Notes: generated from the letters alone by a model not told the origin. Shown: positions 9,735 to 25,752, counted from the first letter of the stretch. The stretch is 26,461 nucleotides of DNA from an uncultured Victivallales bacterium (GCA_964436735.1 CAYTFM010000100.1:1-26461); one strand, 5' to 3'. A program made the numbers and translations.

Positions 9735-9816
9735 TATGGCGTTTGCCGTAGTCAGGCTGCGTCTGACGTAAAAAAACTAAACCACGAACACGAACTAAAA
9801 ATTGAGAGGAGGACAC

Positions 9817-11805: not shown

Positions 11806-11806
11806 A

Positions 11807-14269
11807 ATGCGTCAAACAATCGCGTGCCCTGTGATGGGACACATGGCGTGGGCGGTCGTGCGGCATGCATGGAGGCTGTCAGTCGTCGTGTCCTGCTTGT
11901 CGGTCGTGTCGAATGTTCGTGCGGCTGCGGATGCCGCGATTCCTGCGGCAGAGGCAGGAGGGTGTGGCGAGGTGCTGCTCGACGACTGCGCAAGCATGTC
12001 GCGGTGGCGGTATCACAATGGCGGAGAGTTCCCGGGCGCGAAGGGGGGGCTTGAGAAGGATCCTGTGGGCAAGGGGCTGAAGTTGTCCTACGATTTTGGC
12101 GGAGGCGGATCCTATGTGGGGGCGGGATTGTACGGCGCGTTCCCCCCGGCGGCCGACGTGGCGCGGGTGGCTTTGACGGCACAGGGGGACTGCATGCTGT
12201 TCTTCCGGCTTGTCGACTCCCGTGGTCGCACATATCAATGGGAGAAGCAGAAGCGCGTCGCCGGACAGCACGCCGTGTTGCTGAGCATGACGGCTGGCTG
12301 GTCGGGCGCGTGGGGCGGCCCGAAAGAGACGAAAGCGGACAGCGCGCCTCTCCTGCCCGTGAAGGAGCTGTGGATGTGCGTGGCGAACGCCGATGGCGTC
12401 GCGAAGTTGGGAGCCGTGACGCTGACGAGTGTCTCGGTGGGAAGTTCGAAAGGTGTGATCGCGTCCACGGAACCCGTTGTCGGCGAAGACTTCTCGTGTT
12501 CCTTTGGCGGGTGGCGTGTCACGGGGACGTGGGGCAGTCACGGGTGGCGGAACACGTATCTCCGCGTCGGCGCGGAGGGGGGAGCTGCCCCTGCGGAACT
12601 CGCGCTCGATCTCCCGGCCATGGGACGGCATAAAGTTTTCCGCCTCCACCTCGAACCCGGAAAGACCGAATCCGCCGAGTTCTCCCCGGGACTCCCCAAT
12701 GGCGGGAATCCCCGCAACACGTACCAGATCGCGCTGAGCCTCTCGGTCGGCAGGGAGCACTACGAGAGAATCGTTGTACTCCGCGGCGTGGAGTCGGACA
12801 AAACCGACTTTGGCGCGCCGAAACCAAGCTCGTCGATCGAACGCTCGAAATTTGGCACCTGCGTTCATTTCTCGCACGTCAACCCGGCGGATCCACACTC
12901 GTGGCCGGAGTGGCGCGACTACCAGTGGTTCGTCGACCGGATAGCCGGCGGCGGCATCAAATGGATCCGCGATGGCATCAGAACCGACAAGAGCGCCGAG
13001 GGAACCTACACGCTCAATCCGCACGACGTCGAGTGGGCGCGCTACGCGAAGAGCAAAGGGCTGAGAATCCTGTGTGTCATCTCGATGAACGCCCATGAAC
13101 CAGTGGATGAGTTTGTCGCACGCTGTGAAGCTCTGGCGGAGCGGACGCGTGATCTGGTCGACGCGTTCGAGCTTGGCAACGAGCCGAACAACTTCGGCGG
13201 TTGGCTTAAGAAGTACGGCGGCACGTGGAACGGCAAGGAGGAGGATAACTCCACCTCCGGGTGGGTCAAGGAGCATCTGAAAAGCACCAACGCCGGAGCC
13301 GTGGCGCTCAAAAAGATCAGACCTGAAACCCCGGTGGTCGGGCTTGGCGCATGCTCGCCGACGAACTTCCGCTATCTGGACCTTGGCGTCTCTCCCGCTC
13401 TCGACGGCGTGGTTGATCATCCCTATCCGTACTGCATGCCTCCCGAGAAGATACCCTATGGCTGGGGCATGGAGAAGCGCGACGGCGTCAAGGTCGGCGA
13501 CGCCAACCACACGCTCGAGGGGCTCGTCCGCTCGTACCATGAGAAGTTCGCGGCCACCGGCGCGCCGAGACAGTTGTGGTTCACCGAGTTCGGGTTCTCC
13601 ACGTTTCTCTTCGATGGGGAAAAGACGGAGAAATGTCTCTATGCCGGATTCTCCGAGGAGGCGCAGGCGGTCTACATCGCGCGGGGATATCTGCTCAGCA
13701 GCGTGCTTCCTGTCGAGGCGATCTTCCAGTATGATTTCACCGATGATTACCATTCCGTCCCGCGTGATGCTGAGGCCAATTTCGGCATGTGGCGCGCCGA
13801 CCGTTCTCCCAAGCCGTCGTATGGCGCGGTGACGAGGATTTGTTCACTGCTGGCAGGCTATGAGGCCGACGCCGGCGCCGGCGTCTCCATCACCGCCGCT
13901 CCACTGCACCGCGGCATGGAACGGACGGAGTTGGTGCGGAACTGGGACGATACCACCTTGACCGCCGAGAATGGCGTGCGCGCCCATGCCTTCACCTCGA
14001 AGGCGAAACCCACTACGCGCATGCTGGCGGTCTGGTCGCAACTGCCTTTCTCGAAAGAGCACCATAACCGCGTCGCCACGATCAAACTCACCGGCTGGAA
14101 GGACTTCGGTGTCGATGCGGTCGCCATCGACCTGATCGATGGCAGCACTTTTGACGCGCCAGTGAAGAGGGAGGGCGACGACCTCGTCCTTGACCGCCTA
14201 TTCCTTGGCGCGCATCCACTGATGATCAGCTTCCAGTCTTCCGGGAGTCGCACCAAGGAAGGGGAGTGA
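11807..14269 (+). CDS. Multidomain glycoside hydrolase, clan GH-A paralogue
   Basis: A canonical acid/base motif [12 protein letters not shown] and nucleophile LWFTEFGFS are present. An N-terminal extension of ~330 aa and a C-terminal beta domain flank the core. The start ATG is 1 nt after the preceding stop (tgaaatg), which indicates translational coupling. Confidence 0.6.
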
Positions 14270-14273
14270 TTCT

Positions 14274-14951
14274 GTGAGCAACGATGGAAAACGCCATGTG
14301 GCTGCGAGTGCTTTCACGCTCATCGAGCTCTTGGTGGTGGTCGCGATCATCGCGATACTGGCGGCCCTGCTGCTTCCTGCGTTGAGAGCCGCGCGGGAAC
14401 GCGCAGTCTCCCTCTCCTGCATGAGCAACATGCGGCAAGGCGGGCTTGCCATGCTCAGCTACGTCAATGACAATGTGGGCTATCTCCCTCCGAGTTTGTG
14501 GGAAGGCTCGGGCAAGGGGAAGTATTGGACGAACATTTTGGTCGACAACGACTATATGACGCTGCCGGGGGGCTGGAACAACAAGGCGTGGGGCAATGCG
14601 GGGAAAGGCAATAACATGCTCGTCTGCGTCAGTTCTCAGAAGGCCCGCACCCCCCAATACGAAAGAGCGTATGGCTATGCGCACGGTCAGTGGGGCCATG
14701 GTCCGTTCGACAACAAACCCTACATGATGACCAAGACCTCCCGTCCCACGGAACGGCTCCTGCTGACCGACTACAACACGCCGATCGCCTTCTGCCGCGG
14801 ATGCTGCGGGGACGTCTCGCAGTGGCTGCGGCCAGTCCATCCGTACGAAATGGGCGTCAACGTCGTGCTCATGGACGGACATGGCTCATGGAAAGACGTG
14901 CGCATTCTCTCGGGTGACACCGAGGACATGTGGGGGCACGCCACGCAGTGA
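14274..14951 (+). CDS. Second prepilin-type H-X9-DG pseudopilin-like protein
   Basis: Reads ...[25 protein letters not shown] and later [15 protein letters not shown]. The start is a GTG lying 4 nt after the GH stop, with its RBS AAGGAAGGGGAG inside the 3' end of the upstream gene. Confidence 0.75.
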
Positions 14952-15157
14952 AAACGACTTGGCGAGAGGTCGCTGTCAAGGATCACAAAAACGCGAACGG
15001 CCCACGTTGGGGCGGCAAGAATGACGGCATCTGGCGCGGACCGCTCAAGGGGATGTCCCTCATCGTGGACCGTGGCAAACTCAAGCGTCCTGAGATGAAG
15101 CGAGCACGGTTGCTGGTCGAGGAGATCGAGGTTATTCCGACGCCCTCGGCGAAATGA
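14930..15157 (+). pseudogene. C-terminal gene fragment paralogous to the 207-aa secreted protein at 25753-26376
   Basis: TWREVAVKDHKNANGPRWGGKNDGIWRGPLKGMSLIVDRGKLKRPEMKRARLLVEEIEVIP aligns with the last ~65 residues of the 25753..26376 product (EWQEIFVDPKGVNSTYSGGQCDGVWCGALKGISIILEKGKLKRPDLKRGKLLVDLVEVLP). The first ~140 residues, including the signal peptide, are absent. The fragment overlaps the 3' end of the upstream gene. Confidence 0.4.
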
Positions 15158-15298
15158 CGATCATGAATCAAAACCCGCATTATGCCCACGAGGAGCATCT
15201 GTGTTTTTTCTCTGAGAACGCCCAGTTCCAGTTCGGCCCTTCTGTCAATCTTTATTATCGGTAAGGGCCGCATTAGGGGCAACGCTGTCCTGTTGGGT

Positions 15299-15333
15299 GA
15301 GGCGATGCATCGCCTCGCTTATTGTGTACTTTT
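15299..15333 (+). terminator. Perfect 18-bp palindrome GAGGCGATGCATCGCCTC plus a T-rich tail; putative bidirectional terminator between the convergent GH operon and hsdM
   Basis: The palindrome is at 15299-15316. It is followed on the plus strand by gcttattgtgtactttt. It lies 2 nt from the hsdM stop (15319-15321). Confidence 0.35.
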
Positions 15334-16782
15334 GAGATCTTCGGCGATGGTGGCGAACTGTTCCAAGGCGGCCTCCAGGTCGTCGGTTATCTCCTGTGCG
15401 ATGACCTCCGGGGCGGGAAGATTGGCGGACTCCTCCAGCGAGTCATCCTTCAGCCAGAAGATGTCCAGGTTCACCTTGTCGCGCTTCAGCAGCTCCTCGC
15501 AGGTGAAGCCCTTGAAGCGTTCCGACTCCTTGCGTTCGTGACGGTTCGCCGGATTGAAGCGGGTGACGAAGTCGTCGAGGTCGGATCGCTTGAGCGTATT
15601 CTCTTTGAGCGTGAAATGCAGGTTGGTGCGCAGGTCGTAGATCCAGAGCTTATCCGTCCACGGCTTTTCCCGCGCCGGCTTGCGGTCGAAGAAAAGGACG
15701 TTCGCCTTCACCCCCTGGGCGTAGAAGATGCCGGTGGGCAGGCGCAGCAGCGTGTGGACGTCGGCCTGCTTGAGAAGGGCGCGGCGGATCGTCTCTCCGG
15801 CCCCGCCCTCGAAGAGGACGTTATCAGGTAGGACCACCGCCGCCCGGCCGTTCTGCTTGAGGATCGTGAAGATGTGCTGGAGGAAGTTGAGCTGCTTATT
15901 GCTCGTGGTGGCCCAGAAGTCGTCGCGGTTGATGATGAGCGACTCCTTTTGTTGTTCCCCCGCCTCGTTGACGATCGTCACGCTGCTTTTCTTGCCGAAG
16001 GGCGGATTGGCGAGCACCATCTCGTACTCGCCGTGCTTTCCGGCGAGGGCGTCCTTGGTGACGACCGGCAGATCGCTGTCGGAGTCGCCGCCGCTGCCGT
16101 GCAGCAGCAGGTTCATGGCGCACAGCCGCGTCACGCCGTCCACAAGCTCGATGCCGTAGAGCGTGCTGTTCTTGAGACGCTTCTTCTGCTCGCGGTCGAG
16201 CGAATGGCTTTTGACAAGGTAGTCATGCGCCGCCAGCAGGAAGCCGCCGGTGCCGCAGGCGGGGTCGCAGATGGCGTCGCCCGGCTTCGGGGCCATCACG
16301 TCGACCATGGCGGCGATCAGGGGGCGCGGCGTGAAATATTGCCCGGCTCCCCCCTTCACGTCCTCGGCGTTCTTCTGGAGGAGCCCCTCGTAGGCGTCGC
16401 CCTTGACGTCGGAGGAGAGGCTCGACCACTGCTCCTTGTCGATCAGGTCGACGATCAGCCGCCGAAGCTTGGCGGGATCCTGGATCTTGTTCTGCGCCTT
16501 GCGGAAGATGACGCCGAGCATCCCGGGCCGTTTCCCAAGCTCCTCAAGGGTGTGTCGGTAGTGCGTCTCCAAGTCGTCGCCATCAAGCCGCAGGAGCGAC
16601 TCCCAGTTGAACCCTTTTGGGACGGGCGAGTCCTTCTTGAACGGCGGCTTGCTTTGTTCGTCGGCCATCTTGAGGAACAGCAGATAGGTCAACTGTTCGA
16701 CATAGTCGCCATACGACAGGCCGTCGTCCCTCAGGATATTGCAGTAGTTCCATAGCTTTGCGACAAGTGCTTCAGATCTCAT
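15319..16782 (-). CDS. hsdM: Type I restriction-modification system methyltransferase subunit HsdM
   Basis: HsdM N-terminal helix bundle (LWNYCNILRDDGLSYGDYVEQLTYLLFLKMADEQ), YFTPRPLIAAMV, AdoMet motif I DPACGTGGFL and catalytic NPPFG are present. The RBS GGGAGA precedes the start. Confidence 0.9.
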   Translation of the reverse strand: MRSEALVAKLWNYCNILRDDGLSYGDYVEQLTYLLFLKMADEQSKPPFKKDSPVPKGFNWESLLRLDGDDLETHYRHTLEELGKRPGMLGVIFRKAQNKIQDPAKLRRLIVDLIDKEQWSSLSSDVKGDAYEGLLQKNAEDVKGGAGQYFTPRPLIAAMVDVMAPKPGDAICDPACGTGGFLLAAHDYLVKSHSLDREQKKRLKNSTLYGIELVDGVTRLCAMNLLLHGSGGDSDSDLPVVTKDALAGKHGEYEMVLANPPFGKKSSVTIVNEAGEQQKESLIINRDDFWATTSNKQLNFLQHIFTILKQNGRAAVVLPDNVLFEGGAGETIRRALLKQADVHTLLRLPTGIFYAQGVKANVLFFDRKPAREKPWTDKLWIYDLRTNLHFTLKENTLKRSDLDDFVTRFNPANRHERKESERFKGFTCEELLKRDKVNLDIFWLKDDSLEESANLPAPEVIAQEITDDLEAALEQFATIAEDLKSTQ

Positions 16783-16802
16783 GGCATATATCTCCCGGAG
16801 AT

Positions 16803-17675
16803 TTACAAATCTCTATCAAGTAATTCTTTTACCCACAGTCGGTCACGGTAGGCTCTCAAATAGAGGCGAGCAGCGGTAGAAAACTCAGCTTGAGCTCTGA
16901 CTTTTTTGATGAGTTCTTTTTTGTGATACAAATAATTAGACTCGTTTCCGCCAGCCTTTGCGTCATCTCCTTTTAAGACATGTTCCTCAATATCTATTGC
17001 GAGTTGTTTCCGCTTTCTCACCAATGCAATTTGCTTCAAATGGTATAGTTCAATGCTTGCCTCTACTCGATCAATTGTCATCTGATCACTCTTTGCGGGA
17101 TGAGGAGATCCATCGGGGAGGAATGTAAGGAGTTTTGTGTCGTCGACATTCACCGGATCTAACAATTTTGATCGCTCGCAAGGATCACTTTTACTATGAG
17201 CGTATGATGGAGGCGGAATTATAGGAAAATGGTCTTGCTTGCCACCTTCTGTTCCGCCGATATCTCGCCTCCTACAGTTGCAGAATGTGCAGGATAAACG
17301 GAAATTTTTCCAATCGAAGGCAAGCCACGTATAGCCAGGATGTGTATCTTCCTCAATGACAGAGTTTTTTGGGCGGAAATGATCAACGGACATGTCAGAG
17401 CGGTCTTGTTTAGTTTCACAATACCAACATTTGTCATGACTTGCTTCCCGCAGTGCTTCTTTAGCAGCACTCCATACCGATGATTTTAAATTGATTGCCT
17501 TGTGTCTTGCCTCAAGGCAGATGACATTTAACTCACTTCCGGTTTTCCCTTTTGATTCAGCTTCATCTTTAGCTGCAGTCACCTTTCCCTCAACAAACCT
17601 TTCAGCTTCCTCTACTATTTTTTTCCAATCGGAAGGGAGACAGCAGCAAACGTCATCCTGAAGGATAAACCTCAT
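16803..17675 (-). CDS. HNH endonuclease, Septu PtuB-like (TIGR02646-type)
   Basis: The HNH core reads CWYCETKQ...SVDHFRPKN...WKNFRLSCTFCNCRR (C-x2-C, DH, N, C-x2-C). A strong RBS GAGGAAGG precedes it. Its ATG overlaps the stop of the upstream ATPase ORF by 4 nt (ATGA). GC is about 43%. Confidence 0.65.
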   Translation of the reverse strand: MRFILQDDVCCCLPSDWKKIVEEAERFVEGKVTAAKDEAESKGKTGSELNVICLEARHKAINLKSSVWSAAKEALREASHDKCWYCETKQDRSDMSVDHFRPKNSVIEEDTHPGYTWLAFDWKNFRLSCTFCNCRRRDIGGTEGGKQDHFPIIPPPSYAHSKSDPCERSKLLDPVNVDDTKLLTFLPDGSPHPAKSDQMTIDRVEASIELYHLKQIALVRKRKQLAIDIEEHVLKGDDAKAGGNESNYLYHKKELIKKVRAQAEFSTAARLYLRAYRDRLWVKELLDRDL

Positions 17676-20600
17676 ATCTTGCCTTCCTCATGCTCAATCT
17701 CATCCAATATTTTGTCGGTCTCTTTGGCAAGGTTCTCGATGTCCTTTTTGTTCCAAGCCGGTTTATGCAGAATATCACGAGCTTTTCGTCTGCGCCCAAG
17801 AGCCTGTAAGTAGATCCGATAATAAGGGTCAGAACTAGCGGATTTGAACCCTAAGTGCTCAACTTCTTTAGTCAAATCTTGTAGTTTTTTCAGATCGTCT
17901 ACCGAAACTCTTTTCTTTCCGGCCAATTCCGCATGTTTGTCGAGCAAGCACAGTGTCTCATCATCCAAATCAGATTTCAGCCCAAACATTTCGCTTGTAA
18001 GAATTCCTGTAAAGCCCATGCCTCTTAGGTTTTCGCCAGCCAGGGCTGCGAAGCACTCCTCAGTTTGTTCGCGGCGTTTTAAAAGGTGAATATTCTCCTT
18101 GAGCAGTCCAGCGATTGCTAAAGGATCATGTGTCGATAGAAGCACCTGGCTATTCAACCGTTTCTCAAGTTCTTCGAATGGAAGACGCTTGGGAGAGTTT
18201 TTGTCGGTGACATCCCCTACTAAGGCGTCCAAAAGCAGATGCAAGTATCCAAGCTGCCAGTGGGGATTCAAGTGGGTATCTGGTTCATCCAGAAGGACGA
18301 GAGATTGATTCATCTTCGTGAAACGAAGCAGGCCGAGAACCATCATAAGCTGTTGTTCTCCTTCGCTCATTTCTTTGAAGGTTACAACGGTCTGCTTTGT
18401 TGCTGTTGCGTTTATCCGAATGCGGATTCGCACCTCGTGAATGATTGATGAGAAGTCAGTGCATTCTAAGGCGACAAAGAAGCTGGTCGGGTCAGCATAT
18501 TCCGAGGCTAGTTTTTGCAGGTGTTTTTTACTCGGAAGAAGCAGGAAATAATGATCGCCTGCGCTTTCCTGAAATCCATCATCCACTCGTTGTTGTAAGA
18601 CCATATGCGCAATCGAGTGGCGGCGAAGGTGTTCCAGAACGGGACGAAGTAGTCCGTCTGCGCCCCAGAAATCCTCAGGATTGTTGTTGCGATACCATCG
18701 CGGACGCTTTAAAACAAAGAGAACTGATTCGAGATCTTCGATGCGTAGATGCTTCTTCAAAAAACTGTGGATTCCCGGGTCATCCTCATAAAAAAAAGCA
18801 AGCAGCGCATATTTCGCATGTTGGGTTTCAGCGTTGAAGAATCGTCTTTCTTCCAACAGACGTGCAAGGGTTTCCTCATCGTACGTTTTCTGCTTTAATA
18901 GCCTATTGTAGTGTTCTTGTTTCGGTTCTGAGAAAAGGTCAGCAAACCTTTTGCTTGGGCCGGAGTAGTATCCAAATACAAAATGGGGTAATGGAATCTC
19001 TTCCCGTTTACATATATTAAAGTCGATATTGCCCGATTTATGATTGCGTTTCGATGCTATCTTTGCTTGGGGCTTGCGCAAATTGATTTGCCAATCAATC
19101 TCGACCAATTGCCCATCTATCTCGTAACGAATGCGATAGTCTTCCAAGCCAGCCTGCGGTGTCCATTTGTCTTTTGTTTGCCATTTATAGAGGTCGCGAA
19201 AGATAGCAACAAGTACTTCAAACAGGTTCGATTTTCCCGTGCCGTTCCAGCCGAGAAGCACGTCGACTGCATGGTTCGGATCAAATATCACTGAATAGTC
19301 TTCTAAATTCTTGAACTTTTTGATCCAAATTTCATGAAGACGGAAGGGGCCAGACGGTTTTCTATTAGAATTATGCCGATGATGAGATTTCTTTGCAAGT
19401 TGCTTTTGCCCTGTAAAGCTCTTAATGAGTTTTGCCGAATCTGCGATTGTGTCATAGAACTCATAAACCTCTTCGCGTCCGAATTGTGCGGCATTGAATA
19501 AATCCCTAGCAGTGGGTGTTCCGACAGCTACACTTAACGCAGTTTCAAGCACACGTTTCCGGGCTTCAGATGATTTCATGGAAGAAACTTTCTTGCTCTT
19601 ATGAAGCTTTCTTTGCTTGGGCTGTTCTGATGGAGTCGCAATTAGGTTTACCTTGGGGACATGGATATGTTCCAGCAGCTTTCTTTCAAGCCCATCACAT
19701 GGGTCTTGTGACACCAGTTGGCCAGAGAAGGCCTGTTGAAGGATTTTTTGGCGAAGCAGAATTCCCCGTTGGAGGTTGGTATTCACCACCGCCTCCAACT
19801 CCTCCACCACGCTCATCCGTCGCTCGACCTCCGTAACAATTCTCGTCTGCTCGTCAAGCGGGGGGAGAGGAAACGGAATCGTTGAGAATTTCTCTGCTCC
19901 AAGATGGTTTATGCCGACGCCAACAGCGACCTGAGCAAAAATGCCGTTAATGTAAAAGTGCCTAAGCACAAGAAGAGGGAATCTCGAATCGAGGAGAACA
20001 GGTTGCAGGCGAATGATAGTGTTCTGAAAGCAACATTGAGGCAATTCTTCGTGCCAGATTGCCGGTTTTCCCACTTGGGATATGCTACCAGACGCCTCGG
20101 ATATGATTAGATCCCCACGTTTCAATAGATAACGCTCTCTCTCGTCTGGTGTGAATTCCATCTCAAGCACATCGCTCAAATCGAGACCGTTCTCAGTTAT
20201 GTTTGCGGCGCGCATGTATTTTGTCGGAAAGTCCCTCGAAATATTCTTTGGCGAGCGTTGGCGACCTAATTGAACAGAGCCCAGTTGTCCCACACTCGCC
20301 CACGTCCATCCTTCTGGGAGCTGGGGGAGGTTGGCTGTGTCGGGAGGGGCGGGTTCTTTGTATATGCCGCGGCCGGACCATTTCCGGCGGCGTACAGTGA
20401 GGATGCGCTTCAGGAGTTGCTCCCCATTCTCATACACTTCTGATTTCTTTCCAGTTACATCTGGCTTGGCCAATTCCGCTTCGGTTGGAACTATCTTGCC
20501 CTCGCAAGCAGCCTTGAGCACGGCGGCGCGGTAACGCTTGAGATTTGCCTGAACCCGTTTCAATGCCGCCATCCCCGCCTCCAAACGCGTGAACTGCTTC

Positions 20601-21076
20601 TCGATCTCCGCGACGATAAGACGTTGTTCTGGCAAGGAAAAAGAAGGAATCAAGAATGAAGAAATATCTTTGGGACGAACGGCAGGATAGAGCGCACCCT
20701 GTACTTTTTGACACATCTCATCAATGAAATCAGGTGTCTGGACGGCGTAGAAAAGGAATCTGGGCTCCTCGCCTTTTGCACGCAGCACATGAAACCCAGT
20801 TGAACCAATGGAGCCGTCAAGGTCAGGCGGAACAAGTGCCACAGCATTCAGATTAGGGCGTGTCATTGACACGAGAACGTCGCCCATTCTCAAAACCTGC
20901 TTTGCCCGACTTGGAGCTTGGGCCACTGGCAGTGTCTTAGGATCGACGATCCGTTTTGTCTCACGATCAATGCTACTGATGTCCACGTAACTGAATTCAT
21001 GCCTACCACTTGGAGGACCGGTTTGTTCAACCCGCGCCTCAGTCATATCCCCAATTGTTTTCCCTGCGTTCTTCAC
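17672..21076 (-). CDS. hsdS: In-frame fusion of a complete type I RM specificity subunit (HsdS, aa 1-455, two TRDs) to a PtuA/OLD-like ABC ATPase (aa ~577-1134) through a Lys-rich ~120-aa linker
   Basis: The HsdS part has TRD1, the central conserved region IPSFSLPEQRLIVAEIEKQFTRLEAG, TRD2 beginning LPEGWTWASVGQL, and the distal conserved region PFPLPPLDEQTRIVTEVERRMSVVEELEAV...LLRQKILQQAFSGQLV. No stop follows. The linker is ...KLHKSKKVSSMKSSEARKRV...KKSHHRHNSNRKPSG. The ATPase part begins FRLHEIWIKKFKNLEDYSVIF, has Walker A VLLGWNGTGKSNLFE, Walker B/D-loop SLVLLDEPDTHLNPH and H-loop VLLSTHDP. The start is GTG at 21076, overlapping the upstream gene stop by 4 nt. Confidence 0.7.
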   Translation of the reverse strand: MKNAGKTIGDMTEARVEQTGPPSGRHEFSYVDISSIDRETKRIVDPKTLPVAQAPSRAKQVLRMGDVLVSMTRPNLNAVALVPPDLDGSIGSTGFHVLRAKGEEPRFLFYAVQTPDFIDEMCQKVQGALYPAVRPKDISSFLIPSFSLPEQRLIVAEIEKQFTRLEAGMAALKRVQANLKRYRAAVLKAACEGKIVPTEAELAKPDVTGKKSEVYENGEQLLKRILTVRRRKWSGRGIYKEPAPPDTANLPQLPEGWTWASVGQLGSVQLGRQRSPKNISRDFPTKYMRAANITENGLDLSDVLEMEFTPDERERYLLKRGDLIISEASGSISQVGKPAIWHEELPQCCFQNTIIRLQPVLLDSRFPLLVLRHFYINGIFAQVAVGVGINHLGAEKFSTIPFPLPPLDEQTRIVTEVERRMSVVEELEAVVNTNLQRGILLRQKILQQAFSGQLVSQDPCDGLERKLLEHIHVPKVNLIATPSEQPKQRKLHKSKKVSSMKSSEARKRVLETALSVAVGTPTARDLFNAAQFGREEVYEFYDTIADSAKLIKSFTGQKQLAKKSHHRHNSNRKPSGPFRLHEIWIKKFKNLEDYSVIFDPNHAVDVLLGWNGTGKSNLFEVLVAIFRDLYKWQTKDKWTPQAGLEDYRIRYEIDGQLVEIDWQINLRKPQAKIASKRNHKSGNIDFNICKREEIPLPHFVFGYYSGPSKRFADLFSEPKQEHYNRLLKQKTYDEETLARLLEERRFFNAETQHAKYALLAFFYEDDPGIHSFLKKHLRIEDLESVLFVLKRPRWYRNNNPEDFWGADGLLRPVLEHLRRHSIAHMVLQQRVDDGFQESAGDHYFLLLPSKKHLQKLASEYADPTSFFVALECTDFSSIIHEVRIRIRINATATKQTVVTFKEMSEGEQQLMMVLGLLRFTKMNQSLVLLDEPDTHLNPHWQLGYLHLLLDALVGDVTDKNSPKRLPFEELEKRLNSQVLLSTHDPLAIAGLLKENIHLLKRREQTEECFAALAGENLRGMGFTGILTSEMFGLKSDLDDETLCLLDKHAELAGKKRVSVDDLKKLQDLTKEVEHLGFKSASSDPYYRIYLQALGRRRKARDILHKPAWNKKDIENLAKETDKILDEIEHEEGKI

Positions 21077-22170
21077 TCTTCATCCTTTGCTTTGTCATTC
21101 CATGCGAATTTGCGGATCAAGGTGTTGAAGCGGCTCCATTTATGGGTCAGGAACTGATAACGTCCCGCGACGATTCCCGGAGAGACACCGAGTTCGTTTG
21201 CGATCGTCTTGATCTCGGACTCGATCTGCGAGACCTTGATGCGCCCATTGTACCTGGCGGGGATCAAGGTTTCGGCGGCAAACTCGTCCGCCTGTTTTTC
21301 CCGTGGATCATCCTTGGAACCGTCGTTGATCATGAGATCTTTCTTCGAGTCATGCAAAACGTGCCCGAGTTCATGGAAGAAGGAAAACCATAGTTTATCT
21401 TCGCCTTTGCCACGCAAATTCAGCAGGATCATAGCTTTTGTCGGCGTCAACCACCGGGTCGCTCCGTTCCACGGCGCTTTTTTCATTTCCTTAACCAGTG
21501 CCAACGCCACGCCACACTCAGCACATATCCTTCGCATTTCAGCGACCATTGCTGATGGGTCTGCCTTGCAGGACAGCGAACGCAAAGCATGTATTTGCTT
21601 CAGAAGAGCAGAACGATCATAAGGACGGCAGTCGCACTTCTGGGCTTGCAACTCGCCCATGCGGATCCATGAGGATGCAGGGCCAGGCAGAGACTCAAAG
21701 CATTGAGAACGCCTTGCCGCCACTTCGGGTCTTTCCCATAACTCGCACCATGCCCGCACACTGCTGACGCCATAAAACTTCAACGTGTCGCATAGCAACG
21801 CATGCTTGTCGCTGTTTTGGGGAATAACTTTCCTGCTAATGAGCTCGGAGGTGGGAATTGTCTTGAGCCACTCGAGATCAGACGCCAAACGCTGTTTTTC
21901 CTCCAGCTTGGACAGTTGCTCGCGGTAGTTGAGCTCAAGATTGTTCCAGAACCGGGCGGGAGAGCCAAAGACAAGTTCAAGCCGATTGGCGGTTTCGAGT
22001 GTTATCGGCTGTTCGCCTTTGAAGATTCGATTAATGGTCTGTTGCGTCGTTTCAAGCCGAATGGCAAGCTCTTGCTGCGTCCAGCCATTGAACTCCATGT
22101 GCTCGCGTATAGTTTCGCCTGGTGGAACCGCATAATCCGGGTCGTATGTATATTTGCGTTTCGCTTTCAT
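21073..22170 (-). CDS. HigA-like XRE-HTH antitoxin domain fused to an ImmA/IrrE-family (COG2856) zinc metallopeptidase
   Basis: The N-terminus is IREHMEFNGWTQQELAIRLETTQQTINRIFKGEQPITLETANRLELVFGSPARFWNNLELNY, a HigA/VapI-type HTH. The C-terminus has HEXXH (FFHELGHVLHD) followed by EKQADEFAAETLIP, the ImmA/IrrE signature. A strong RBS GGAGGAA precedes it. Its ATG overlaps the higB-like stop (ATGA). Confidence 0.7.
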   Translation of the reverse strand: MKAKRKYTYDPDYAVPPGETIREHMEFNGWTQQELAIRLETTQQTINRIFKGEQPITLETANRLELVFGSPARFWNNLELNYREQLSKLEEKQRLASDLEWLKTIPTSELISRKVIPQNSDKHALLCDTLKFYGVSSVRAWCELWERPEVAARRSQCFESLPGPASSWIRMGELQAQKCDCRPYDRSALLKQIHALRSLSCKADPSAMVAEMRRICAECGVALALVKEMKKAPWNGATRWLTPTKAMILLNLRGKGEDKLWFSFFHELGHVLHDSKKDLMINDGSKDDPREKQADEFAAETLIPARYNGRIKVSQIESEIKTIANELGVSPGIVAGRYQFLTHKWSRFNTLIRKFAWNDKAKDEE

Positions 22171-22529
22171 TGGCGGTTCCTCCGCTGGTATTTCTGGTCA
22201 TGCGTGTCTTCGATGTCGATTACTTCAATAGCTGTCACTTGCTCCAAGTCGATGCCTCCGTCAGTTTTTGTTGGTACGGGAATATTTGCCGGTATGAAGA
22301 GCAACCTATATGGATACTGGAGGTCAACCGAAAAAACGCCTTTCCTATTGACAAGCTCATGGCACTGAGGCGGTGGTAGGTAAGAGATGTCACTTAGCGT
22401 CTCCCCCGCTTTCAGTTCCGCCAGGCGTTGCCGGAGTTTTGAGGCGCACTGCGGGCCAAGCTCCCTGACGCCCGCCTTCTCCACATCGCAGATCTTTTTC
22501 AACTTGTTTGCTCTAAATGATATCTCCAT
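22167..22529 (-). CDS. HigB-like toxin (RelE/ParE superfamily, plasmid-killer family)
   Basis: The 120-aa product reads MEISFRANKLKKICD...LRQRLAELKAGETLSDISYLPPPQCHELVNRKGVFSVDLQYPYRLLFIP. This matches the HigB pattern and it lies immediately upstream of a HigA-type HTH gene. The start coordinate is taken from the ORF track; my manual count of the start codon differs by 1 nt. Confidence 0.6.
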   Translation of the reverse strand: MEISFRANKLKKICDVEKAGVRELGPQCASKLRQRLAELKAGETLSDISYLPPPQCHELVNRKGVFSVDLQYPYRLLFIPANIPVPTKTDGGIDLEQVTAIEVIDIEDTHDQKYQRRNRQ

Positions 22530-22530
22530 G

Positions 22531-22600
22531 TCGCTCCGTCTTCAATAAATAATTAACATTCTATGTTAATAAAAACAAGCAAATAGAGTTTACTTTTTTT
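22531..22600 (-). promoter_or_regulatory. Promoter/operator region for the higB-led operon with a perfect palindrome TTAACAT-tct-ATGTTAA
   Basis: On the minus strand: TTGTTT, a 17-nt spacer, TAATTA, then GGAG, then ATG. The 17-bp palindrome at 22554-22570 overlaps the spacer, which is the typical autoregulatory operator arrangement for a TA HTH antitoxin. Confidence 0.45.
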
Positions 22601-22761
22601 GAAAACTTCCTCCCGGAAGATTTCCCGATGTTCGTTGGGAATACCTCGTCTCCGGTTTTACCCGAGTCCTTTGGTGTTCCGCCCCCCCGGGGATGGGCGT
22701 ACCGCCGGGCAAACTTGCTTCCTCCCCAGAATGCGGGCGGGACGCCCACGGTCCCAGGGAG

Positions 22762-25557
22762 TCATGCAACAAGCGCCTGGTTCAACTCGTCCAGGATGCC
22801 GTTCAAGTCACCGCCGAAGAGCTGCGAGGCCTTGCCGAGGCCGCCTTGCTGGCTGAAGGGGGCGTAGTCGAAGTCCTCCGGCTCGACGCTGAGGCTGGTG
22901 GCGATGTGGTCGCGGATAAGGTTGAGCCAGGAGAGCTGCTCGGAGGCGAAAACCGTGCCGGCCTTGGCCTTGTCCATGAGCCATTCGTTGAACCGCTCAT
23001 GGACGGACTCGGCGAAGGGCTGAAGCAGCGGTTGCTGCTCCAGGGCGAAGCGGACGAGCGCGACGAGGTCGGCGAAGCGTCCGGTCTGCGAACGTCCTTT
23101 GACCTTGCCGGGGCGGGTGGCGGCGAAGGCGTTCCAGAGGCGGTCCTCCGTCCATGCGGCGTGGTTCTCGCAAAGCTTCCGCTCCAACTCCTTGAGCATC
23201 TGCTCGGTGACGCGTTGGCGGTAGGGGCGGCTGTAAAGGATTTGCAGGGCGGAGATCTCCGCGTGATGCTGTTCGAGGTAGGCGCGGAAGGATTGCACAA
23301 GATTGGCGGCCCGCTCCTTGGCAGCGGCGTCGAACCCTTGCTCGACCACGGCGTCGATGGTGACGGTGTCGATGGTCTGCTCGCTGGCCTTCTTGACGGC
23401 GAGGATTTTCTCGCGGAGTTCGGGGCTGTCGAAGGGAAGGCAAGCGGTGGCGACAAGGTCGGCCTGTGCCGCGGCAAGATCCTCCCGCGAGGACTGGAAG
23501 TCCGTGGGCTTGCCCGTGACGGCTTTCGCGTGGACGAGATCCGGATCGAGGGCGTCGAGGAGGGCTCGGGCGAGATCGGGAAGGGATTTGCCGCCCGCAA
23601 GCTCCTTGAGCCCCTTGGCGTCTTCCTGCGTGCTATCCTGACTGAGCCGCGCGAGGCGTCCGGCAAGGGAGCTGATGGTGTCCTCGTTGCGCTTGCCGAG
23701 GGCGACGCCGAGGAGGAGATCTTTGAGCGGCACTGTGCGTTTGCGCTCGAGGGGGCGGGAGTCGGTCTTGTCGCTTTCGCAGACGCCGACGGCGTCGACG
23801 ATCACGAAATGCGTCTTGGCCCGGGCGTCGGCCCCGCTGACGGACTGCAGGTCGGTCGGGCTGAGCACGCGGGTGCCGCGCCCCTTCATCTGCTCGAAAT
23901 AGACCCGGCTGCGGACGTCGCGCAGAAAGAGGAGGCATTCCAGCGGCTTGATGTCCGTGCCGGTGGCGATCATGTCCACTGTGACGGCGATACGCAACTG
24001 CGGCGAGGTGCGGAACAATTGGATAAGATCCTCGGCCTTGGCCGGCTTGCCGGTCTCCGGATGCTTGGACTGGTAGGTGATCTTCTTGGCGAAGTCGTTG
24101 CCCTTGCCGAAGACCTCCCGGACGATGTGGACGACATCCTCGGCATGCGAGTCGTCCTTGGCGAAGATCAGCGTCTTGGGCACCATGGCGCGTCCGGGGA
24201 ACAGCTCCGTGAAGAGGGCGTCTTTGAAGGCTTTGATGACGGTGCGGATCTGGGAGGGGACGACGACGGAGCGGTCCAGCTCCTGTTTGGTGTATTCCAG
24301 ATCCTCGTCGAGGCGCTCCCAGCGGCGGGCGCGGGTCTCCTTGCTGCGCTTGTCGACGTAGAAGCCCTTCTCGACAAGGCCGCCCTGTTCCGAGACCTGC
24401 GTCTTGATCCGGTAAACCTCGTAGCCGACGTTCACGCCGTCGGCCACGGCGCGTTCGTGTCTGTATTCCGTGACAAGGTTCTGATGAAAGAAGCCGATGG
24501 TCTGCTTGGAGGGGGTGGCGGTGAGGCCGATGATGAAGGCGTCGAAGTAGTCGAGGACCTGCCGCCAGAGGTTGTAGATGGAGCGATGGCACTCGTCGGT
24601 GACGATGAAGTCGAAGGTCTCGATGGGGATCGCCGGGTTGTAGGCGACCTCGCGGGGGCGCTCGTTCGCCTGGGAGAGCTCGAAGGCGGACTTCTCGTCG
24701 AGATCCTCGTCAAGCTCCTCGCCCCGCAGCATCGCGTAGAGCCGCTGGATGGTGCAGACGCAGACGCGGGCCACCGGATCAAACTGGTTGGAGTTGAGCC
24801 GCTGGACGTTGTGCAACTCGGTGAACTTGCGGCCGGTGTCGGGCGTGACGAACTGGTCGAACTCGGATTTGGCCTGACGTCCAAGGTTGGCGCGGTCGAC
24901 GAGGAAGAGGACGCGGCGGGCTCCGGCGTGTTTGATCAACCGGTAGATGAAGGCGCAGGCGGTGAAGGTTTTGCCCGCACCGGTGGCCATCTGGATCAGG
25001 GCGCGCGGGTGGTTGGCGGCGAAGGACTGTTCCAGCCGCGTGATGGCCTCGGTCTGGCAGGTGCGCAGACCGCGCGAGACAAGCGGATGAGCGGCGGGCG
25101 CGGTTTGCAGGCGCATGCGCAGGGTGTCGGGCTCGGTGGCCATGGCGGACAAGGTTTCGGGTCGATGGAAGGAGAAGATTTGGCGGGAACGTGGATCAGG
25201 ATCGCGTTCGTCCCTGAAAAAGGTTTCGACGCCGGTGGATTCGTAGCGGAAGGGAAGCGATCCAGCCTTGGGCCTCAGGAACTCGGGGAGCGTGTCGCCA
25301 TAATAAGCCGTTTGGTCGGCGACGATGGAAAGGGTCTTGCCCTCGCGTTTCGCTTCGACAACCCCGACAGGCGCGCGGTTCGCGATCAGGAGGTAGTCGC
25401 ATCGGCCGCCGGGCAGCGGCACTTCGCGCAAGGCGACGCCTGGTGAGGCTCCAAGGTTGCACCTCACATAGTCCTGAACCAGCCAGCCCGAGTCGGCAAG
25501 CATCCGGTCGATCTTCTCACGTGCCTTTTGTTCAGGCGTTCCTGGCATTCGTGCCAT
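22762..25557 (-). CDS. hsdR: Type I restriction enzyme R subunit HsdR (SF2 helicase/endonuclease)
   Basis: The N-terminus EQKAREKIDRMLADSGWLVQD is HsdR-like. Helicase motif I is LIQMATGAGKTFTA and motif II VTDECHRS; the remainder is the long SF2 body. Start is the ATG at 25557 with GAGGA upstream. The ORF-track extension to 25635 adds 26 residues with no RBS. Confidence 0.85.
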   Translation of the reverse strand: MARMPGTPEQKAREKIDRMLADSGWLVQDYVRCNLGASPGVALREVPLPGGRCDYLLIANRAPVGVVEAKREGKTLSIVADQTAYYGDTLPEFLRPKAGSLPFRYESTGVETFFRDERDPDPRSRQIFSFHRPETLSAMATEPDTLRMRLQTAPAAHPLVSRGLRTCQTEAITRLEQSFAANHPRALIQMATGAGKTFTACAFIYRLIKHAGARRVLFLVDRANLGRQAKSEFDQFVTPDTGRKFTELHNVQRLNSNQFDPVARVCVCTIQRLYAMLRGEELDEDLDEKSAFELSQANERPREVAYNPAIPIETFDFIVTDECHRSIYNLWRQVLDYFDAFIIGLTATPSKQTIGFFHQNLVTEYRHERAVADGVNVGYEVYRIKTQVSEQGGLVEKGFYVDKRSKETRARRWERLDEDLEYTKQELDRSVVVPSQIRTVIKAFKDALFTELFPGRAMVPKTLIFAKDDSHAEDVVHIVREVFGKGNDFAKKITYQSKHPETGKPAKAEDLIQLFRTSPQLRIAVTVDMIATGTDIKPLECLLFLRDVRSRVYFEQMKGRGTRVLSPTDLQSVSGADARAKTHFVIVDAVGVCESDKTDSRPLERKRTVPLKDLLLGVALGKRNEDTISSLAGRLARLSQDSTQEDAKGLKELAGGKSLPDLARALLDALDPDLVHAKAVTGKPTDFQSSREDLAAAQADLVATACLPFDSPELREKILAVKKASEQTIDTVTIDAVVEQGFDAAAKERAANLVQSFRAYLEQHHAEISALQILYSRPYRQRVTEQMLKELERKLCENHAAWTEDRLWNAFAATRPGKVKGRSQTGRFADLVALVRFALEQQPLLQPFAESVHERFNEWLMDKAKAGTVFASEQLSWLNLIRDHIATSLSVEPEDFDYAPFSQQGGLGKASQLFGGDLNGILDELNQALVA

Positions 25558-25752
25558 GCCTTTCCTCGATATGGGGTCGGACAGGAAACAGCGTATACTT
25601 ATTCTATGACCCGGGGCGCGGTTTTCAAGTTGCATTCAAGGGGTGATCCCCTCGTCAACCTGGGAGATCGCCGATTGTTTTATTGGAATATTTGCCGGCC
25701 AGGATGTAATTATTGGGCTGAAATCTCGAAAACAGCCTAATCATGAGGAGCT

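Follow-up and report, generated by a model that had tools for sequence, protein, structure and literature searches.

A type I restriction-modification locus with HsdS fused to the Septu ATPase PtuA points to a widespread family of HsdS-linked PtuAB systems

Canonical Septu is a standalone two-gene system; it was reportedly described by Doron et al. in 2018, and structures of it are 8EEA and 8EE4. Here we analyse a stretch of 26,461 nucleotides (nt) from an uncultured Victivallales bacterium (GCA_964436735.1, CAYTFM010000100.1:1-26461; 'the window' below means this whole stretch), in which the gene for the Septu ATPase PtuA is fused to hsdS, the specificity gene of a type I restriction-modification (RM) system, and is followed by the gene for the Septu HNH nuclease PtuB. 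A 2025 phylogeny of PtuA and PtuB separates only 'Septu' and 'retron I-A' classes (PMC12819146). In retrons of type I-A (Ec78/Eco7, Ec83) the sensing module co-opts and physically holds the PtuAB effector, and in retron-Septu the adaptor elements have been acquired by PtuA (PMC12819146). Those Septu and retron-Septu systems that have been characterised are abortive-infection effectors, some of which cleave tRNA-Tyr (PMC13096335, PMC11555353).

That defence genes can sit inside type I RM, BREX, DISARM and Hma systems is also established, with DarTG2, GmrSD, PARIS and others as examples, and such genes are described as passengers that function independently (Payne et al. 2024, bioRxiv). DarTG2 has been found between hsdS and hsdR (PMC12255303). 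For Septu, embedding in Hma accounts for only 0.7% of the systems, and nearly every PrrC lies within a type I RM system (Payne et al. 2024); the order HsdR-HsdS-PrrC-HsdM is documented (PMC11555353), and inhibition of the RM complex activates PrrC (PMC11555353, PMC12707154). A 2025 review of RM biology makes no mention of Septu (PMC12707154). Our literature search, whose coverage did not include the ABC-ATPase survey of Krishnan et al. (2020), found no description of an HsdS-PtuA fusion, of an HsdS linking domain or of an HsdR-less M-S-PtuAB module. The data presented below delineate a widespread and apparently undescribed hybrid family of type I RM and Septu, for which the fusion provides a Rosetta-stone link.

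Six minus-strand open reading frames (ORFs), all co-oriented, span positions 15319-25635 of the window. In order of transcription they are hsdR, then, after a gap of 232 nt, a HigB-like gene, a gene for a helix-turn-helix (HTH) protein with an M78 domain (HTH-M78), hsdS::ptuA, ptuB (HNH) and hsdM (Table 1). Gene order and gap agree with a first-pass annotation made from the sequence alone, which had also proposed a defence island on a type I RM basis, with hsdS fused to an ATPase gene and followed by an HNH gene. PADLOC supported this proposal: every middle gene was defence-related except the HigB-like ORF, for which no PADLOC match was obtained. This ORF matches a PHROG toxin family.

The HsdS part of the fusion matches PADLOC Specificity_I over residues 8-562 (3.8e-82) and, using Foldseek, the HsdS structures 3okg, 5ybb and 2y7c (E 6e-23 to 1e-12). 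An AlphaFold2 (AF2) model of the fusion, obtained with an alignment of 23 fused homologues (mean pLDDT 76), shows the two target-recognition domains (TRDs) and two long helices of an HsdS. In this model HsdS is confident at residues 27-450 and is followed by a disordered tether (462-502), a small four-helix domain (503-556), a second short disordered stretch and PtuA. The PtuA part aligns to positions 2-525 of the 527 of the PADLOC PtuA model (6.8e-148; fusion residues 579-1132). Its fold matches the Septu and retron PtuA structures 8eea, 9n6b and 9nnb (Foldseek E 1e-12 to 1e-8) and also 8ee4. It possesses the Walker A, Walker B, signature and H-loop elements of the Septu ABC ATPase: Walker A (G609-S616), the signature residues S904, G906, E907 and Q909, Walker B (D930, E931) and H983 are invariant in the 23 fused homologues. 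In an HMMER search, residue 2 of standalone PtuA relatives aligned to fusion residue 579, and the fusion boundary was therefore fixed at this position. No stop codon interrupts the HsdS/PtuA junction, and no in-frame ATG, GTG or TTG is located near residue 579, which rules out an internal PtuA start there. As encoded, HsdS and PtuA are thus one polypeptide, in which a small helical domain and a flexible basic tether lie between the two parts. This PtuA is not that of a standalone two-gene Septu: it has no start codon of its own, is fused to HsdS and belongs to a subfamily for which linkage to HsdS/HsdM was seen in 88 of 88 census loci and in five of five loci from a less biased sample (both described below).

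The HNH nuclease gene lies directly downstream of ptuA, and its product is recognised as PtuB by PADLOC (2.4e-77) and NCBIfam (1.3e-14); conservation of H99, N124, N133 and C83 reaches at least 90% among 82 homologues, and a sequence search of the PDB with PtuB returned nothing useful. HsdM (N6_Mtase 1e-66, HsdM_N 7e-13, PADLOC MTase_I 2.9e-193) carries the conserved DPACGTGGF and NPPF motifs of a type I methyltransferase. HsdR (Pfam ResIII 6e-37 and EcoEI_R_C 1.5e-39, NCBIfam PRK11448 4e-114) combines a PD-(D/E)xK nuclease, with D80, E94 and K96 conserved, and an SF2 helicase motor, with Walker A, DECH and motif VI conserved. Catalytic and nucleotide-binding motifs are therefore intact in all four proteins, HsdR, HsdM, PtuA and PtuB. 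The longest hsdR ORF opens at 25635. Because a promoter-like site falls inside the first 35 nt of this long ORF and homologues align to HsdR only from about residue 33, translation probably begins at M27 or M30 (MARMPGTPEQKAREKIDRML...), near nt 25557.

The fusion is not restricted to the window. A search of 5.8 billion proteins recovered more than 20 full-length fused homologues (1050-1180 residues, HsdS+PtuA), down to 26-30% identity, and 1.84 billion cluster representatives, searched exhaustively with HMMER, gave about 10 fused clusters at 50% identity. Fused genes are also found in isolate genomes, for example those of Leptolyngbya PCC 6406 and Brevundimonas. Using the fusion alignment as query, one genome per species was scanned (185,579 species), which yielded at least 522 confirmed stretches; the best 80 of these were included in a census of 88 loci at the ORF level. 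The best 80 belong to Verrucomicrobiota, Acidobacteriota, Cyanobacteria, Planctomycetota, Chloroflexota, Bacteroidota, Actinomycetota and Proteobacteria, and include Acinetobacter nosocomialis, Enterobacter asburiae and Shewanella. No megablast match to the Enterobacter module was detected in 5,426 E. coli genomes.

HsdS is directly followed by PtuA and then by PtuB in 86 of the 88 loci, that is, wherever the sequence covers both genes; the two exceptions, L035 and L061, begin at ptuA. The S-A-B junctions mostly measure -4 to +3 nt, and HsdM adjoins the unit wherever the contig reaches far enough. Two layouts exist, S-A-B-M as in the window (46 loci) and M-S-A-B (33 loci). The fused gene is present in 17 of the 87 other census loci; unfused operons (L007, L092, L094) have the same order as fused ones, and S::PtuA-PtuB-HsdM is kept in all six metagenomic loci with fused homologues. 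The five best standalone PtuA relatives, scored via PtuA alone, gave the same picture: each lies directly downstream of an HsdS of 535-598 residues, with a PtuB-sized gene and HsdM adjacent, and the closest unfused relative has the order HsdR-HsdS(598 residues)-PtuA-PtuB-HsdM. From the census and this five-relative control, we conclude that S upstream of M is normal for the family and that PtuAB is no free-floating insert. The first-pass annotation had regarded hsdS before hsdM as a reversal of the usual order and had counted two nested accessory modules. The order is indeed present, but as one of the two standard layouts of the family rather than an oddity; the HigB-like/HTH-M78 pair is a variable add-on as proposed, whereas the ATPase-HNH pair proved to be Septu, part of an invariant HsdS-PtuA-PtuB unit.

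A small domain accompanies this unit. With an iterative hidden Markov model, the 'Septu-linking' domain was detected in 85 of the 88 loci. Split systems always have it at the very C-terminal end of HsdS, as a rule behind a tether rich in Lys and Arg, and fused systems always have it between the HsdS and PtuA parts. In the window it is flanked by disordered, partly basic tethers (residues 462-497 and 559-578) and is predicted by AF2 with pLDDT 69-88 inside the fusion and 77 alone. No significant Foldseek match to its fold was found in the PDB, the best ones (E about 2-3) being winged-helix-like proteins. Owing to its position at the fusion point, the domain is an obvious candidate for the HsdS-PtuA interface. 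At its very start lies M500 (ATG codon at 19577-19579). Met occupies this position in all 16 fused genes examined, the equivalents being in L001, L002, L004, L005, L008-L014, L016, L018, L024 and L025; mostly Lys or Arg is found there in unfused HsdS. The upstream sequence is A-rich, mostly without a clear Shine-Dalgarno motif. M500 may be the relic of an ancestral 'domain-PtuA' gene start, or it may allow internal initiation yielding free domain-PtuA; the latter, if true, would help with the problem of one HsdS versus a PtuA oligomer.

HsdR is less constant. In 50 loci the sequence extends for 7 kb or more in both directions; HsdR was detectable in only 16 of them, always upstream and co-oriented. 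In ten HsdR-negative loci, Pfam analysis of the largest unassigned ORF gave no credible HsdR: phosphoketolase, GyrB, TraG, IF-2, a TonB-dependent receptor and a NACHT protein were found instead of a hidden HsdR, while the ORF of L001 had no Pfam match and that of L050 weak helicase matches. Eight other HsdR-negative loci contain no ORF of at least 650 residues. In L005, an ORF of 173 residues directly upstream of an intact S::PtuA-PtuB-HsdM (3086-3607) matches HsdR residues 34-80 and 434-523; it reads as an internally deleted hsdR remnant, direct evidence at the sequence level that HsdR was lost and the rest kept. A WYL-domain (BrxR-like) regulator gene is located just upstream of this remnant.

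Plasmids gave a similar result. NZ_CP012741.1, a complete F-type conjugative plasmid of about 70 kb from the clinical Vibrio vulnificus isolate FORC_017, carries M-S-PtuA-PtuB at nt 61069-66751, and no HsdR homologue was found anywhere on it (positive controls above 900 bits); RefSeq names the four genes methylase, subunit S, ATP-binding protein and hypothetical protein. The Pantoea plasmid pEuc2 carries S-PtuA-PtuB-M with no HsdR within the stretch of about 19.5 kb examined. The loci of Enterobacter asburiae TN152 and Acinetobacter nosocomialis NIPH 2119 are further modules counted as HsdR-less. By gene content, HsdR is optional across the family. A gene with a Fic/DOC domain directly precedes the Vibrio module (L088, 59964-66751), and a Fic family gene is located near the Pantoea one (L089). 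The leading region of the Vibrio plasmid (L090, 3240-3563) also contains, beside ArdC, a fragment of 108 residues annotated as 'type I restriction endonuclease subunit M'.

In contrast to the conserved PtuA parts, TRDs vary strongly: where the PtuA parts of two loci agree at 78-85% of positions, the identity of either TRD is only 15-29%, although some locus pairs share TRD1 at 74-87%. As judged from these identities, the pattern is classical TRD shuffling between close relatives. HsdR-less loci are included in this diversification, and the sequence read by HsdS therefore matters to the function of the module. Taken together, the HsdS-PtuA-PtuB-HsdM unit, often without a nearby HsdR, suggests an undescribed way to aim a Septu nuclease via an RM DNA reader.

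The GC content of the window locus is mosaic, as the first-pass annotation had stated, and our recalculation gave a strong contrast, clearest at third codon positions (GC3). GC and GC3 are 0.61 and 0.86 for hsdM and 0.64 and 0.84 for hsdR, with host ORFs at GC3 0.71-0.85. The corresponding values are 0.43 and 0.38 for ptuB, 0.45 and 0.47 for the PtuA part, 0.52 and 0.53 for the HsdS part, and 0.51-0.52 and 0.59-0.61 for the toxin-antitoxin (TA)-like pair. The shifts coincide with gene boundaries: GC3 leaps from 0.38 (ptuB) to 0.86 (hsdM) over the spacer between them, and similarly at the hsdR end (22762). Relatives are milder (PtuB versus HsdM, 0.52 versus 0.65 in L001 and 0.50 versus 0.78 in L002), and relatives from high-GC hosts (compare L001, L002, L005, L006) show the same direction of difference, far weaker. 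Judged by pairwise protein identities, HsdM has diverged in step with PtuA and PtuB, as it has among the other close relatives. An hsdM of another lineage than ptuAB is thus unsupported as the explanation, and the GC contrast alone is no proof of separate nesting events. It could reflect recent cassette exchange at gene boundaries, or gene-specific codon constraints or rare-codon selection in the effector genes.

How might these parts work together? The reading that we favour, with about even confidence, is that of a physically coupled type I RM-Septu hybrid, where HsdS directs or controls PtuAB as a restriction arm. HsdS::PtuA and two HsdM would form the usual M2S1 methyltransferase, which would read a bipartite target and methylate host sites. 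PtuA, with PtuB on its C-terminal domains, would be held on M2S1 via the HsdS C-terminal domain or the fusion, and HsdS would thereby decide where or when the nuclease acts. Unmodified target sites on foreign DNA would then engage the ATPase cycle of PtuA and release PtuB activity. PtuAB would be an HsdS-directed restriction arm that stands beside HsdR in the window and in place of HsdR in related loci and plasmids devoid of it. The retron offers a precedent for co-option of PtuAB by a different sensor (PMC12819146). An extension of this scheme, which we put forward tentatively and regard as possible rather than probable, is that HsdM-HsdS-PtuA-PtuB forms a self-sufficient, unrecognised RM class: PtuAB would have replaced HsdR after recruitment by the HsdS domain or fusion, HsdS-defined, methylation-sensitive recognition would trigger this branch of Septu, and the window would be a transitional form in which both nucleases are kept.

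Several points weigh against an HsdS-directed restriction arm. We infer the interaction of HsdS with PtuA from the fusion, the adjacency and the common domain, and the inter-domain arrangement of the AF2 model is unreliable (pTM 0.47). PtuA works as dimers or higher oligomers whereas M2S1 has one HsdS, which leaves the stoichiometry of the fused form unexplained. The 80 scanned census loci were ranked by their match to the fused query and are thus biased toward S-PtuA adjacency, the unbiased sample being 5 loci. HsdR-negative genomes could encode HsdR elsewhere, as only about 10 kb of flank was visible, and the HsdR profile could miss divergent families. A frameshifted hsdM beside intact S::PtuA and PtuB, as in L002, is awkward if loss of methylation is lethal, and the sharp GC3 step from ptuB to hsdM has no explanation in the model. 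Finally, the abortive-infection behaviour of Septu fits a guardian role as well as restriction (PMC13096335, PMC11555353).

In such a PrrC-like guardian role, M2S1 would keep PtuAB latent by binding it, and a phage anti-restriction protein of the Ocr/ArdA/Stp type, or another infection cue that disturbs the complex, would fire abortive infection through non-specific cleavage of tRNA or DNA, HsdS acting as sensor or antitoxin and not for targeting. There is precedent in PrrC, an ABC-ATPase-nuclease in type I RM that becomes active on RM inhibition (PMC11555353, PMC12707154), in retrons, which sequester PtuAB and release it on infection (PMC12819146), and in standalone Septu, which is abortive and cleaves tRNA-Tyr (PMC13096335); the tight stoichiometric coupling provided by fusion and translational overlap would also suit a toxin/antitoxin-like relationship. 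A guardian should, however, accompany HsdR, yet HsdR is missing from about two-thirds of the well-flanked loci and from a whole conjugative plasmid, and ongoing TRD shuffling suggests selection on DNA specificity, which a pure inhibitor sensor would not need. As HsdR is often absent and TRDs keep diversifying, this role is weighed down somewhat; we regard it as the main rival, less likely than the restriction arm. Much more doubtful is a chance insertion of independent, autonomous cassettes (the TA module and ATPase-HNH) into an RM hotspot, the fusion being incidental. Type I RM operons do commonly hold independently acting defence genes (Payne et al. 2024; DarTG2, PMC12255303), GC3 of the middle genes is strongly unlike that of hsdM and hsdR, and the TA-like pair is truly variable between loci. 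But for PtuAB this is largely refuted by the census: HsdS-PtuA-PtuB is invariant in 86 of 88 loci, in two layouts and many phyla, and in five of five independently chosen PtuA relatives; at least 16 genes keep the fusion, PtuA is accompanied by a dedicated domain at the C-terminus of HsdS, and HsdM co-diverges with PtuA and PtuB. An origin of the fusion in faulty assembly or sequencing, or in a decaying locus where loss of the hsdS stop gave a pseudogene, deserves hardly any credence. The window is a single metagenome-type contig, and some relatives do decay (HsdR fragments in L005, frameshifted hsdM in L002, split fusions in L016 and L024), but independent fused genes occur in many samples and isolates with frame and ATPase motifs conserved at 26-60% identity, the catalytic motifs of the window genes are all intact, and conservation of the fusion refutes the idea.

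Published work treats Septu as standalone or retron-associated. The invariant HsdS-PtuA-PtuB adjacency, the dedicated HsdS linking domain and the frequent absence of HsdR together point to a third mode, where sequence- and methylation-specific DNA recognition would be wired straight to the PtuAB effector. If this is true, Septu gains a defined and manipulable trigger, a target motif and its methylation state; many loci labelled 'orphan type I methyltransferase plus Septu' or 'ATP-binding protein / hypothetical protein' become single systems; and an example of effector swapping is added to the evolution of RM systems. The family also offers a concrete case for the guardian-versus-nuclease question on ABC-ATPase defence effectors.

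The remaining features of the window concern its borders and expression. The island genes lie on the minus strand against plus-strand chromosomal flanks, as initially noted and as borne out by ORF calls and domain annotation of the flanks. These encode a flotillin, a GntR/LacI-type regulator, glycosyl hydrolases, a CBM9 protein and DUF1559/prepilin-like proteins, the last being typical for bacteria of the Planctomycetes-Verrucomicrobia-Chlamydiae (PVC) group. Window scans for mobile-element boundaries found no integrase, transposase, tRNA or flanking direct repeats, in line with the absence of integrase and transposase claimed at first, and no Rfam family reached the gathering score anywhere in the window. 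Three ATGA overlaps had been announced; they are present between the HigB-like and HTH-M78 genes and between hsdS::ptuA and ptuB (4 nt), but the HTH-M78/hsdS::ptuA overlap is GTGA. A 20-nt spacer (16783-16802) with a GGGAGA ribosome-binding-site-like motif separates ptuB from hsdM. The promoter-like site upstream of the probable hsdR start was scored against the consensus, and the host looks PVC-type, whose promoter rules may differ. The hairpin downstream of hsdM is probably the end of the operon, and the gap after hsdR is a probable internal promoter and operator region. From a promoter in this gap would be transcribed the HigB-like gene, the HTH-M78 gene, hsdS::ptuA and ptuB, all four translationally coupled, and probably also hsdM.

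Table 1. Positions of the genes, protein domains and putative signals of the locus in the window
Feature	Position	Strand	Description
hsdR	22762-25635	-	type I restriction subunit, EcoEI/EcoAI-like family
Intergenic gap, hsdR to HigB-like gene	22530-22761	-	232 nt exactly; AT-rich at downstream end
HigB-like gene	22167-22529	-	120 residues; HigB/RelE-like toxin-family gene
HTH-M78	21073-22170	-	365 residues; HigA-like HTH fused to M78 (ImmA/IrrE-type) metallopeptidase
hsdS::ptuA, whole ORF	17672-21076	-	1134 residues
HsdS portion of fusion	19697-21076	-	residues 1 to about 460; two TRDs and two conserved helices
'Septu-linking' domain	19397-19585	-	residues 498-560; small four-helix domain of about 63 residues
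PtuA portion of fusion	17672-19342	-	residues 579-1134; Septu ABC ATPase
ptuB	16803-17675	-	290 residues; Septu HNH nuclease
hsdM	15319-16782	-	487 residues; type I N6-adenine methyltransferase
Promoter-like site TTGAAA-16-TAGAAT	25601-25628	-	10/12 consensus positions; upstream of probable hsdR start
Terminator-like hairpin, then T-run	15174-15192	-	consensus match in terminator scan; downstream of hsdM
19-bp perfect palindrome ATTAACAT-N3-ATGTTAAT	22552-22570	.	8-nt arms, 100% complementary (repeat search)

The HigB-like protein matches PHROG 3066 'toxin of TA system' (8.5e-10; a phage-derived family) and, below the cut-off, Pfam HigB-like_toxin (0.0044; 17.9 bits versus 27); no sequence match was found in the PDB. 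Its neighbour contains HTH_3 (2e-9) and Peptidase_M78 (5e-12) domains with a HELGH motif in the translation, approaches the cut-off of TIGR02607 HigA (6.5e-12; 45.1 bits versus 47.7) and has PD-Lambda-2_B (2e-25) as best PADLOC match, followed by capP (2e-10). It is a probable antitoxin and/or autoregulator. The perfect palindrome in the gap after hsdR lies 22-41 nt before the ATG of the HigB-like gene. It occurs once in the window, shuffled sequences giving an expectation of 0 matches, and is a plausible candidate operator for the HTH-M78 protein; the HTH would probably bind it and autoregulate the promoter in the gap.

Among the 88 loci, the HigB-like/HTH-M78 pair occurs only in the window and in L039, there 5 kb off the core, and other loci hold other small genes, which agrees with its initial description as a nested accessory module. 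The position taken by the pair at the R/S junction of the window is occupied in L002 by a Gp49/HI1420 TA pair (8991-9676), in L092 by an unrelated gene of 205 residues (3759-4376) and in L001 by four reverse-oriented small genes (8056-10002); in L004 two unannotated small ORFs separate the upstream flank from hsdS (1201-1789). As different small genes are found there in different loci, the junction behaves as an insertion hotspot, possibly for regulators.

Some relatives differ in other respects. In L002 hsdM appears frameshifted, with two tblastn segments in different frames (14173-15644, 16591-17880), and S::PtuA and PtuB are intact. Genes for a tyrosine integrase and an HTH_17 excisionase-like protein, located 1-2 kb downstream, suggest that this copy is carried by an integrative element. 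Related loci are also found in typical defence islands: McrBC is located directly downstream in L007 (12236-15578), with an integrase nearby, and the L092 locus is preceded by a nucleotidyltransferase/HEPN pair and followed by a Lamassu-like LmuB_C gene (383-1089, 11191-13653). In L003 and L006, the most divergent fused loci, the PtuA parts are 21-27% identical to that of the window and the linking domain is lacking; a longer gene (360-381 residues), missed by the PtuB profile, occupies the PtuB position (L003:10218-11363, L006:6778-7860). In these two, HsdS may have fused to an ATPase a second time and independently, giving a lineage that uses another effector.

Long HsdS proteins are not limited to PtuA fusions. 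In 87 proteins of 600-800 residues that are close homologues of the window HsdS part, only Methylase_S is annotated, without the Septu-linking domain. Other homologues are fused to a DUF559/Vsr-like endonuclease, HTH+M78 peptidase, GIY-YIG, radical SAM, Y1 transposase or HsdM; the long or fused homologues (from P0015-P0120) include P0015, P0016, P0058 (Gemmata), P0074 (Rosistilla), P0022, P0060, P0075, P0095, P0051, P0065, P0110, P0029, P0068 and P0101. Judging from these combinations, HsdS seems to serve such lineages as a general platform, to whose C-terminus effectors or regulators are fused.

Compared with known systems, the locus shares with Septu the full-length matches to the PtuA and PtuB models, the fold, intact Walker and HNH residues and a ptuB that follows ptuA with a 4-nt overlap; it differs in that PtuA is the C-terminal half of an HsdS protein, without its own start codon, and in that the ptuAB pair is flanked by hsdS and hsdM. 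With type I-A retrons it shares the principle of a separate sensing module that holds PtuAB via partner-specific structural elements, but the partner here is a type I methyltransferase/specificity complex, and the adaptor is on HsdS, as C-terminal domain or fusion. No Rfam noncoding RNA was found in the window and no reverse-transcriptase domain in the six island proteins and ten flanking ORFs; a retron reading was rejected for lack of an Rfam match. The toxin-like gene upstream of an HTH antitoxin-like gene with a 4-nt overlap recalls HigBA, from which the pair differs by its weak toxin match, the extra M78 domain of the antitoxin and its translational coupling to hsdS::ptuA. The combination of HTH and M78 peptidase is that of protease-controlled repressors, the ImmA/IrrE (M78)-HTH regulators such as CapP/CapH. 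Only component B of PD-lambda-2 is matched, with no A or C match in the neighbouring genes (PADLOC), and the MADS models score far below their thresholds (MAD2 127 bits versus 720, MAD5 24 versus 400, MAD3 21.5 versus 420).

Like PrrC of EcoprrI (and RloC), PtuAB places an ABC-type ATPase and a nuclease inside a type I RM operon beside hsdS, and PrrC is presumed to be under control of the RM complex. PrrC is of another family, however, with ATPase and anticodon nuclease in one polypeptide that is not fused to HsdS, and the guardian logic has it accompany complete R-M-S, whereas here HsdR is often absent. The window has an ATPase and a separate HNH protein whose best families are PtuA and PtuB, so that the likeness to PrrC/RloC is one of position and logic. 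The PtuA part also matches, below the cut-off (2e-28), NCBIfam TIGR04435, 'restriction system-associated AAA family ATPase', after which NCBI names the fused homologue P0026; from this name we gather that curators have noticed the RM association of such ATPases. The term 'restriction system-associated AAA' was found in no paper, and TIGR04435 is an annotation label only, under which fusion, linking domain and HsdR-less modules are not described. From classical type I RM (EcoAI/EcoEI-like by EcoEI_R_C), the locus retains the defining domains and motifs of R, M and S and the shuffling of TRDs, but its HsdS continues into a tether, a helical domain and PtuA, ptuB precedes hsdM, the order is R-S-(A-B)-M and HsdR is dispensable across the family. 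Finally, with inner genes co-oriented with the host system, the arrangement counts as 'embedded'; it differs from other embedded systems in that this PtuA subfamily is obligately HsdS-linked and sometimes covalently fused.

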